From assembly GCF_003334255.1 (NCBI RefSeq), contig NZ_QOWU01000086.1: a stretch of 9,929 bases of DNA; one strand, 5' to 3'. Each line of letters starts with the position of its first letter. Positions within the stretch are counted from its first letter, which is position 1. The position numbers and the translations under genes were made by a program. Below are positions 8,324 through 9,929 of this stretch, one piece after another. This stretch comes from Escherichia coli. GTDB lineage: Bacteria; Pseudomonadota; Gammaproteobacteria; Enterobacterales; Enterobacteriaceae. Below the pieces are notes generated by a model. That model had not been told where the DNA came from and searched no databases. It saw nothing but the letters and a program-made list of their open reading frames with translations.

Positions 8324-9865
8324 ATGAGACACTTTATCTATCAGGACGAAAAATCACATAAATTCTGGGCGGTGGAGCAACAGGGAAACGAGTTGCATAT
8401 CAGTTGGGGAAAAGTTGGCACCAAAGGGCAAAGTCAGATAAAAAGTTTTTCAGATGCTGCGGCAGCGGAAAAAGCGGAACTTAAGCTGATTGCGGAGAAG
8501 GTGAAGAAGGGGTATGTGGAGCAAGCGAAGGATAATTCTTTGCAACCTTCCCAAACGGTAACGGGCTCTCTCAAGGTAGCGGACTTATCCACCATTATTC
8601 AGGAACAACCCTCTTTCGTAGCAGAAACCCGTGCGCCTGACAAAAATACAGATGCTGTTTTACCGTGGCTGGCGAAAGATATTGCTGTCGTTTTTCCGCC
8701 CGAAGTTGTACACACCACGTTAAGTCATCGCCGCTTTCCCGGAGTTCCTGTTCAGCAAGCAGACAAATTGACCCAATTACGTCGCTTAGCCTGTAGTGTG
8801 TCGCAACGGGATAATAAAACAGCCACATTTGACTTCAGCGCCTGTTCTTTAGAATGGCAAAACACCGTCGCCCAGGCGATCAGTCAGATCGACGGCCTGA
8901 AAACAACACAGTTACCATCACCAGTAATGGCTGTACTCACGGCACTTGAAATGAAATGCACAAGATATAAAGTGCGTGAGGATGTTATGGATCAGATCGT
9001 CCAGGAAGGCGGTCTGGAATATGCTACTGATGTAATAATACACCTTCAACAGATTGATATTGAATGGGATTATGCGAATAATGTCATTATTATTCTGCCG
9101 TCTGGCATTGCACCTAGCTACTTGGAGCAATATTCCAGATTTGAATTACGCCTACGTAAACATTTATCACTGACGGAAGAGTCTCTCTGGCAAAAATGTG
9201 CACAAAAACTTATTGCCGCAATTCCACATATTCCAGAATGGCGGCAACCATTAATTGCTTTGTTATTACCCGAAAAACCAGAAATTGCACATGAAATTGC
9301 CCAGCGTCTACTGGGGCAAAAAAAATTACCCTCGCTTGAGTGGTTAAAAATAGTGGCGACTGATGAGCACATTCTTGCCTCATTAGAAAAATATCACGAA
9401 CCATATGCCATTTTTGATGATTACTATTGTGGTGCGATATGGTCAGCCACCGTATTACAGGAGCAAGGTGTTGCAGCCCTGCCCCGATTTGCTCCCTATG
9501 CCGCAAGTGACTACTGCGCCGATGTGTTGCGTCATATCAATCATCCGTTCGCATTGACACTGCTTATACGTGTAGCCGGGCAAACTAAACGCTGTCACGA
9601 TCGGATGACGAAAGCCATTGCTGCGTTCCCACATGCAGCAATGGCGGCACTGACGGAACTTCTTGGGCAAAAAGAAGAGAACAGTTGGCGCATTATGCTA
9701 ATGACAATGCTTATCTCACAACCAGCACTGGCAGAACAGGTCATTCCCTGGCTCTCGACACCCGCAGTTGCCGTACTGAAATCATGCCAGCAACAACTGA
9801 CACAGCCCTCAAACCATGCCAGCGCCGATCTACTGCCAGCCGTAGTAGTCTCCCATAAGCGCTAA
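8324..9865 (+). CDS. molR: WGR-domain protein, 513-aa ORF; probably the N-terminal portion of a MolR-like protein, possibly a pseudogene fragment
   Basis: The N-terminus YQDEKSHKFWAVEQQGNELHISWGKVGTKGQSQIKSFSDAAAAEKAELKLIAEKVKKGY has the WGR-domain pattern. A GGGA Shine-Dalgarno lies 6 nt upstream of ATG 8324. Position after metG matches the molR locus. The ORF stops at 9863..9865 while another forward frame is open from 9871 to the window end, which fits a frameshifted gene. Confidence 0.7.
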   Translation: MRHFIYQDEKSHKFWAVEQQGNELHISWGKVGTKGQSQIKSFSDAAAAEKAELKLIAEKVKKGYVEQAKDNSLQPSQTVTGSLKVADLSTIIQEQPSFVAETRAPDKNTDAVLPWLAKDIAVVFPPEVVHTTLSHRRFPGVPVQQADKLTQLRRLACSVSQRDNKTATFDFSACSLEWQNTVAQAISQIDGLKTTQLPSPVMAVLTALEMKCTRYKVREDVMDQIVQEGGLEYATDVIIHLQQIDIEWDYANNVIIILPSGIAPSYLEQYSRFELRLRKHLSLTEESLWQKCAQKLIAAIPHIPEWRQPLIALLLPEKPEIAHEIAQRLLGQKKLPSLEWLKIVATDEHILASLEKYHEPYAIFDDYYCGAIWSATVLQEQGVAALPRFAPYAASDYCADVLRHINHPFALTLLIRVAGQTKRCHDRMTKAIAAFPHAAMAALTELLGQKEENSWRIMLMTMLISQPALAEQVIPWLSTPAVAVLKSCQQQLTQPSNHASADLLPAVVVSHKR

Positions 9866-9929
9866 CTTAAGGGTTGAACCATCTGAAGAATGCGACGCCT
9901 CGGTGCCTCGTTAAGACGATGCCTCGCGT

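Follow-up and report, generated by a model that had tools for sequence, protein, structure and literature searches.

Why does an open reading frame (ORF) that carries a recognisable N-terminal domain end abruptly after 513 residues? The question is posed by a stretch of Escherichia coli DNA of 9,929 nucleotides (contig NZ_QOWU01000086.1 of RefSeq assembly GCF_003334255.1), hereafter the window, in which an ORF with an ATG start occupies 8324..9865 on the + strand; its limits and its length of 513 amino acids are confirmed by the ORF list and the translation. The initial annotation, made from the letters alone, regarded the ORF as a possible disrupted fragment of a larger molR-type gene, and attributed the disruption to a frameshift or a nonsense mutation followed by continued coding in a second frame, open from 9871. 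Our analysis retains the fragment and replaces its cause. With high confidence, we interpret the ORF as a pseudogene fragment comprising the front 40% of molR/yehH, cut by an IS186 element inserted at codon 510/511.

The uninterrupted form of the gene is found in strain MB30, where molR spans 1264 codons (WP_001215620.1) and encodes both a WGR and a DUF4132 domain. The tblastn comparison of this intact MolR with the window yielded a single high-scoring pair, placing amino acids 1-510 at 8324-9853 with 100% identity. The native molR/yehH 5′ fragment, codons 1-510 of 1264 on the + strand, carries no substitution and no indel relative to the intact allele. As had been suspected, 9865 does not mark a natural gene end, and a larger molR-type gene is represented here by its 5′ part. 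MolR similarity past residue 513, which might have continued in another frame, was absent from the other frames within the window, as shown by the single tblastn pair.

The sequence that follows codon 510 belongs to a mobile element. When 5426 complete E. coli genomes were searched by megablast with 8200-9929, nearly all of them matched up to window position 9854 only. The last 76-80 bases of the window have matches at thousands of places on E. coli chromosomes and plasmids, and therefore bear the signature of a mobile element. The 76 nt at 9854..9929 are the terminus of IS186 on the - strand, and all 76 agree with the end of K-12 IS186A in reverse complement. They begin with the 23-bp IS186/IS421 terminal inverted repeat CATAAGCGCTAACTTAAGGGTTG (9854..9876), of which the element carries a perfect inverted copy at its opposite terminus; perfect 23-bp inverted repeats are present at both ends in loci L001, L005, L006 and L007, as well as in K-12 IS186A. 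Directly before the repeat lies the left copy of a 10-bp target-site duplication, AGTAGTCTCC (9844..9853), whose second copy falls beyond the window end; in L001, L005, L006 and L007 these 10 bp abut the element on either side. Base by base, the junction in the relatives runs ...GCCGT AGTAGTCTCC, CATAAGCGCTAACTTAAGGGTTG ...IS... CAACCCTTAAGTTAGCGCTTATG, AGTAGTCTCC CCTCCCTGG... The origin of the stop codon is evident from the molR frame, in which ...GTC TCC is followed by the element-derived CAT AAG CGC TAA, to be read as ...VVVS-HKR-stop. Ser510, the codon of which ends at 9853, is the last native residue, codons 511-513 (His-Lys-Arg) are derived from the element, and the TAA stop (9863..9865, + strand) lies inside the inverted repeat.

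The following sequence of events best explains these features. IS186, a member of the IS4 family, entered molR/yehH (1264 codons) at codon 510/511 by transposition, through staggered cuts 10 bp apart that duplicated AGTAGTCTCC. From the intact start codon of molR, translation now proceeds through 510 native codons and enters the repeat at CAT AAG CGC TAA, giving a product of 513 residues. Either insertion orientation yields this same product, since the two inverted repeats are identical.

The window ends 76 nt into the element, and the complete IS, with the remainder of molR beyond it, is presumably present in this genome as it is in the relatives. When the sequence is extended downstream by way of these relatives, molR resumes beyond the IS at codon 508. 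In E. coli G1/2, tblastn places MolR amino acids 508-1264 directly after the element, and across the relatives molR restarts 1336-1339 bp on. At about 1.34 kb, the element has a length of 1336 bp in G1/2 and of 1338-1339 bp elsewhere. Compared with K-12 IS186A, the full elements show 0-2 mismatches over 1339 bp; two strains have no mismatch, and the G1/2 copy lacks 3 bp. This 3-bp deletion is in frame (element at L001 9655-10990), and a 1-bp deletion frameshifts the transposase in the copy of strain ETEC1703 (L007 4751-5862). The gene for the DDE transposase, insL, lies on the - strand past the window end, and an IS421-family transposase is annotated in all of the relatives that share the junction, the RefSeq product name being "IS4-like element IS421 family transposase". 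In the RefSeq annotation of G1/2, the order is a WGR pseudogene without its C-terminus ([quoted passage not shown]), the IS421-family transposase on the - strand, a DUF4132 pseudogene without its N-terminus, and yehI. This agrees with the orthologous order metG - molR - yehI, of which metG lies 5′ in the window and yehI follows in the relatives.

The reading originally proposed, that molR is cut short at codon 513 by a point frameshift or a nonsense mutation while coding continues in the frame from 9871, can be judged against this junction. Lesions of that kind do exist elsewhere in molR. K-12 carries a nonsense codon at position 275 (yehF) and an extra G at nt 2845. The downstream molR remnant of G1/2 has a 1-nt deletion (-T) at gene nt 3365 (about 12836 in L001), which, being outside the window, leaves the stop at 9865 unexplained. 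A deposited protein of 526 residues, P0004, likewise labelled "molybdate metabolism regulator", ends in ...SPPWLSKKKNRRFRCWI and looks like the result of a frameshift in a AAAAAGAAAAAA run at codons ~515-517, five codons past the insertion site; it is a different truncation from the IS186 product, of nearly the same length. The window ORF, however, is unchanged relative to the intact allele up to codon 510, after which the IS186 repeat supplies the stop and all 76 bases of 9854-9929 agree with IS186A. As for the frame at 9871, it is indeed open to 9929, but it amounts to merely 19 codons of IS sequence. This frame, which in G1/2 is closed after 38 codons, bears no similarity to MolR, and its openness is uninformative. 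The junction, the closure of the 9871 frame and the identity to IS186A refute a frameshift or nonsense origin for the window, and we give this origin practically no credence. The lesions in K-12, G1/2 and the 526-residue variant indicate that molR/yehH is decaying independently in several lineages.

A different concern is whether the junction itself is real. At its left end the window opens with 77 nt that form the terminus of IS1 and match exactly the IS1A ends in L002, L003 and L010; at its right end it closes with 76 nt of IS186. Enclosed in this way by two repeats, it has the look of a complete short-read contig. Such ends are typical of de Bruijn contigs, which end in repeats, and molR might accordingly be intact in the real genome, with the junction an assembly artefact. 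Yet the contig can reach the IS only via reads joining molR codon 510 to the IS end. In addition, the same junction and target duplication occur in eight complete genomes, and the junction is also found in many other assemblies. We therefore regard an artefact as very improbable, and retain the insertion of IS186 as a property of the genome.

The rest of the window provides the genomic context. According to the ORF list and the annotation of near-identical genomes, a partial yehA, yehB, yehC, yehD, yehE and apbC/mrp lie on the - strand, and metG (6141-8183, + strand) lies immediately 5′ of the molR fragment. The IS1 interrupts yehA (- strand, start codon at 264) after about codon 62. The closest relative is E. 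coli G1/2, with one base different over window positions 200-9929; this sole mismatch is at 2590, in yehB. The IS1 positions in yehA differ between the window and G1/2, and the window genome is for this reason an isolate other than G1/2. Among the matches listed for the complete genomes, the yehA::IS1 junction of the window was not found as a contiguous match, and appeared solely as two-piece joined matches. The Rfam search of the whole window returned no family.

The control region of molR is also retained. A terminator-like hairpin at 8193..8216 on the + strand, equivalent to 7994-8017 in G1/2 (L001), is the intrinsic terminator of metG. The metG-molR intergenic region begins at this terminator and contains the molR promoter, which BglJ-RcsB was reported to activate (PMC3950696). 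The observation that no terminator-like hairpin follows the stop of the 513-residue ORF was borne out by the terminator scan, and is explained by the presence of IS186 at that place. On the + strand, the terminators nearest to the ORF are that of metG, upstream, and another that lies within the IS some 550 bp downstream (in G1/2 coordinates).

We next consider the protein that the truncated gene would encode. The WGR domain recognised in the initial annotation is present at residues 6-69 (8339..8530, + strand; Pfam PF05406, E=1.7e-18). Its relationship to the WGR of PARP1/2 and of the Bacteroides fragilis protein of PDB entry 2ra8 is apparent from the alignment of 2ra8 to residues 2-70 (E=2.4e-17) and from a Foldseek match to the same structure. 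Unlike PARP, the MolR fragment has no PARP catalytic domain, and the rest of it is a predicted α-helical repeat. The sole NCBIfam match of the WGR segment was to a Leptospira family and scored 64 bits, far below the cut-off of 1000. DUF4132 (PF13569), the other domain named at the outset, is absent from the 513-residue ORF in the Pfam search; it is located at about amino acids 988-1173 of the intact protein (E=4e-50), beyond the IS and within the C-terminal 754 residues that the truncated product lacks. The AlphaFold2 model of amino acids 1-510 (mean pLDDT 79) consists of the WGR domain as a four-strand-plus-helix unit (residues 3-61), a disordered linker (66-109) and an α-helical repeat of about 400 residues (~110-500). 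For this helical part, sequence and fold searches of the PDB found no significant solved relative, the only matches being those of the WGR domain to 2ra8, and Foldseek gave non-specific ARM/HEAT/PUF/14-3-3-like matches with TM-scores of 0.25 or lower. The truncated 513-residue product is most likely non-functional, and a loss of molR function would be the expected consequence of the insertion.

The public record might nevertheless suggest a genuine stand-alone WGR protein with a natural C-terminus. The exact 513-residue sequence is deposited as a "WGR domain protein", and is public as UniProt A0A0A0H8U0 and as the "molybdate metabolism regulator" of E. coli 53638; moreover, Escherichia has other WGR-only entries of 470-600 residues. 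A word-indexed list of homologues contained mainly fragments and no full-length protein, and the counts were supplied by exact look-ups instead. The 513-residue protein is present on 197 contigs and in 337 blocks of the collection, with a transposase on either strand nearby, which confirms that both orientations of the element yield the identical product. Against a natural C-terminus, the final three codons and the stop are inverted-repeat sequence of the IS. The intact allele, identical over the 510 native residues, runs to 1264 amino acids and is far commoner, with 3849 blocks against 337, and RefSeq flags the locus as a pseudogene. A stand-alone 513-residue protein is ruled out by the junction analysis, and its probability is, in our estimation, negligible.

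The truncation by IS186 is not confined to a single lineage. IS186 is present at the exact molR site in 14 of the 5426 complete E. coli genomes, eight of which have the same junction as the window and six of which were detected via the 23-bp repeat only. Three of the eight were isolated from humans in Germany, and the other five came from pigs (four ETEC strains and PEC422). Four of the six were retrieved, and each of them has an oppositely oriented IS186 at the same base pair. Three of these four loci (L005, L006 and L008) were compared base by base, the fourth being that of VL40. In L005 and L006 the same duplication is found on both sides of the element, and in L008 a molR remnant directly follows the IS. 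The 3.7 kb upstream flank defines two haplotypes, with 51-52 differences over 3700 positions. The first comprises the window, G1/2, O121, O9:H10 and VL40, and the second, K-12-like and with the codon-275 stop, comprises ETEC1703 and ECCNB12-2. In the latter two strains, the K-12 stop at codon 275 coexists with IS186 at codon 510, in orientations opposite to each other. Since both orientations of IS186 are present on each of the two haplotypes, the element was inserted at this site independently at least twice, and probably at least four times.

Codon 510 of molR is thus a natural hot spot for IS186. The lon promoter of E. coli B is reportedly another, as described by SaiSree et al. in 2001. 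The molR site is used repeatedly and in either orientation, and is flanked by G/C, in the manner of IS186 hot spots. The target published for IS186, GGGG(N6/N7)CCCC, is highly specific, repeatedly used and accepted in either orientation, and fimA and menC are further insertion hot spots, in mutation-accumulation lines (PMC5009759). The molR site, GTAG(TAGTCT)CCCC, agrees with this motif at four of four positions in the right half and two of four in the left (6/8 flank positions); it differs from the consensus in that its left half-site is GTAG, not GGGG. The K-12 IS186A site, GGGG(ATCACT)CCCC, shows a 10-bp duplication, GGATCACTCC, of the same geometry as that of the molR site with AGTAGTCTCC. 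In its sequence, which equals IS186A, its perfect 23-bp repeats and its 10-bp duplication, the element at the molR site resembles K-12 IS186A/B/C. No paper found in our literature search linked IS186 with molR/yehH. What is new here is mild, and is limited to the repeated natural use by IS186 of a molR site that matches the consensus imperfectly.

In some genomes the sequence beyond the element is rearranged. VL40 has gatD/yegS joined to it, E. coli 53638 has a P4-like integrase island and L021 has dmsC, and in L020 a deletion extends into yehL. The IS186 copy at the molR site has seeded larger rearrangements in several genomes.

The function of the intact gene has been considered from its neighbourhood. 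In an intact locus (L012 10001-23795), molR and yehI are followed by yehK, yehL (MoxR-type AAA_5), yehM (DUF5682), yehP (VWA) and yehQ (SWIM). YehI is a paralogue of MolR, 37% identical over amino acids 107-1204 and without the WGR domain. This gene order suggests a tie between MolR and a MoxR/VWA-type cluster. None of the PADLOC defence models matches intact MolR or YehI, and the literature search on DUF4132, WGR, yehH, yehI and yehL-Q found no function, the BglJ-RcsB promoter study aside. The name "molybdate metabolism regulator" is a database label only, for which the literature searched gave no experimental support.

Given the repeated use of one base pair, we asked whether the truncation is selected, either because the loss of MolR is advantageous or because a stably expressed fragment, composed of the WGR domain and the helical region, is active. 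The recurrence of at least two, probably at least four, independent insertions, the identical product of both orientations, the promoter region kept 5′ of the ORF within the window and the independent inactivation of molR in K-12 would fit such selection. Recurrence, however, is sufficiently explained by the known target specificity of an element that inserts in either orientation. The insertion is also limited to 14 of the 5426 complete genomes, and some strains show decay of the remnant downstream and of the IS itself, as expected of a neutral pseudogene. That the GTAG...CCCC hot spot at codon 510 has been reused through selection, for MolR loss or for a stably expressed 513-residue fragment, is in our view unlikely. 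If it were true, the element would serve as a recurrent switch that turns a WGR/DUF4132 (MolR, YehI)-MoxR (YehL)-VWA (YehP)-SWIM (YehQ) module on or off, or that trims its domains.

The interruption of molR by IS186 can be compared with the state of the gene in K-12. There, yehF (b2115) and the yehH pseudogene (b4499), formerly molR_1/2/3, represent the same gene at the same metG-yehI locus, also as a pseudogene and labelled "molybdate metabolism regulator, disrupted in K-12". The K-12 gene is disrupted by the codon-275 stop and the additional G, with no IS, whereas the reading frame of the window allele stays open up to and including codon 510 and is cut by the element.

To conclude, the feature is an ordinary IS-generated pseudogene, already known from the RefSeq annotation and from the truncated protein in UniProt and NCBI. 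The finding is of little weight, with minor practical value for database entries, for the IS186 target site and for the decay of molR. The 513-residue "WGR domain protein" of the E. coli databases is a truncation product of IS186 and not a distinct protein, and the independent decay of molR/yehH argues for the dispensability of the gene in many E. coli niches.
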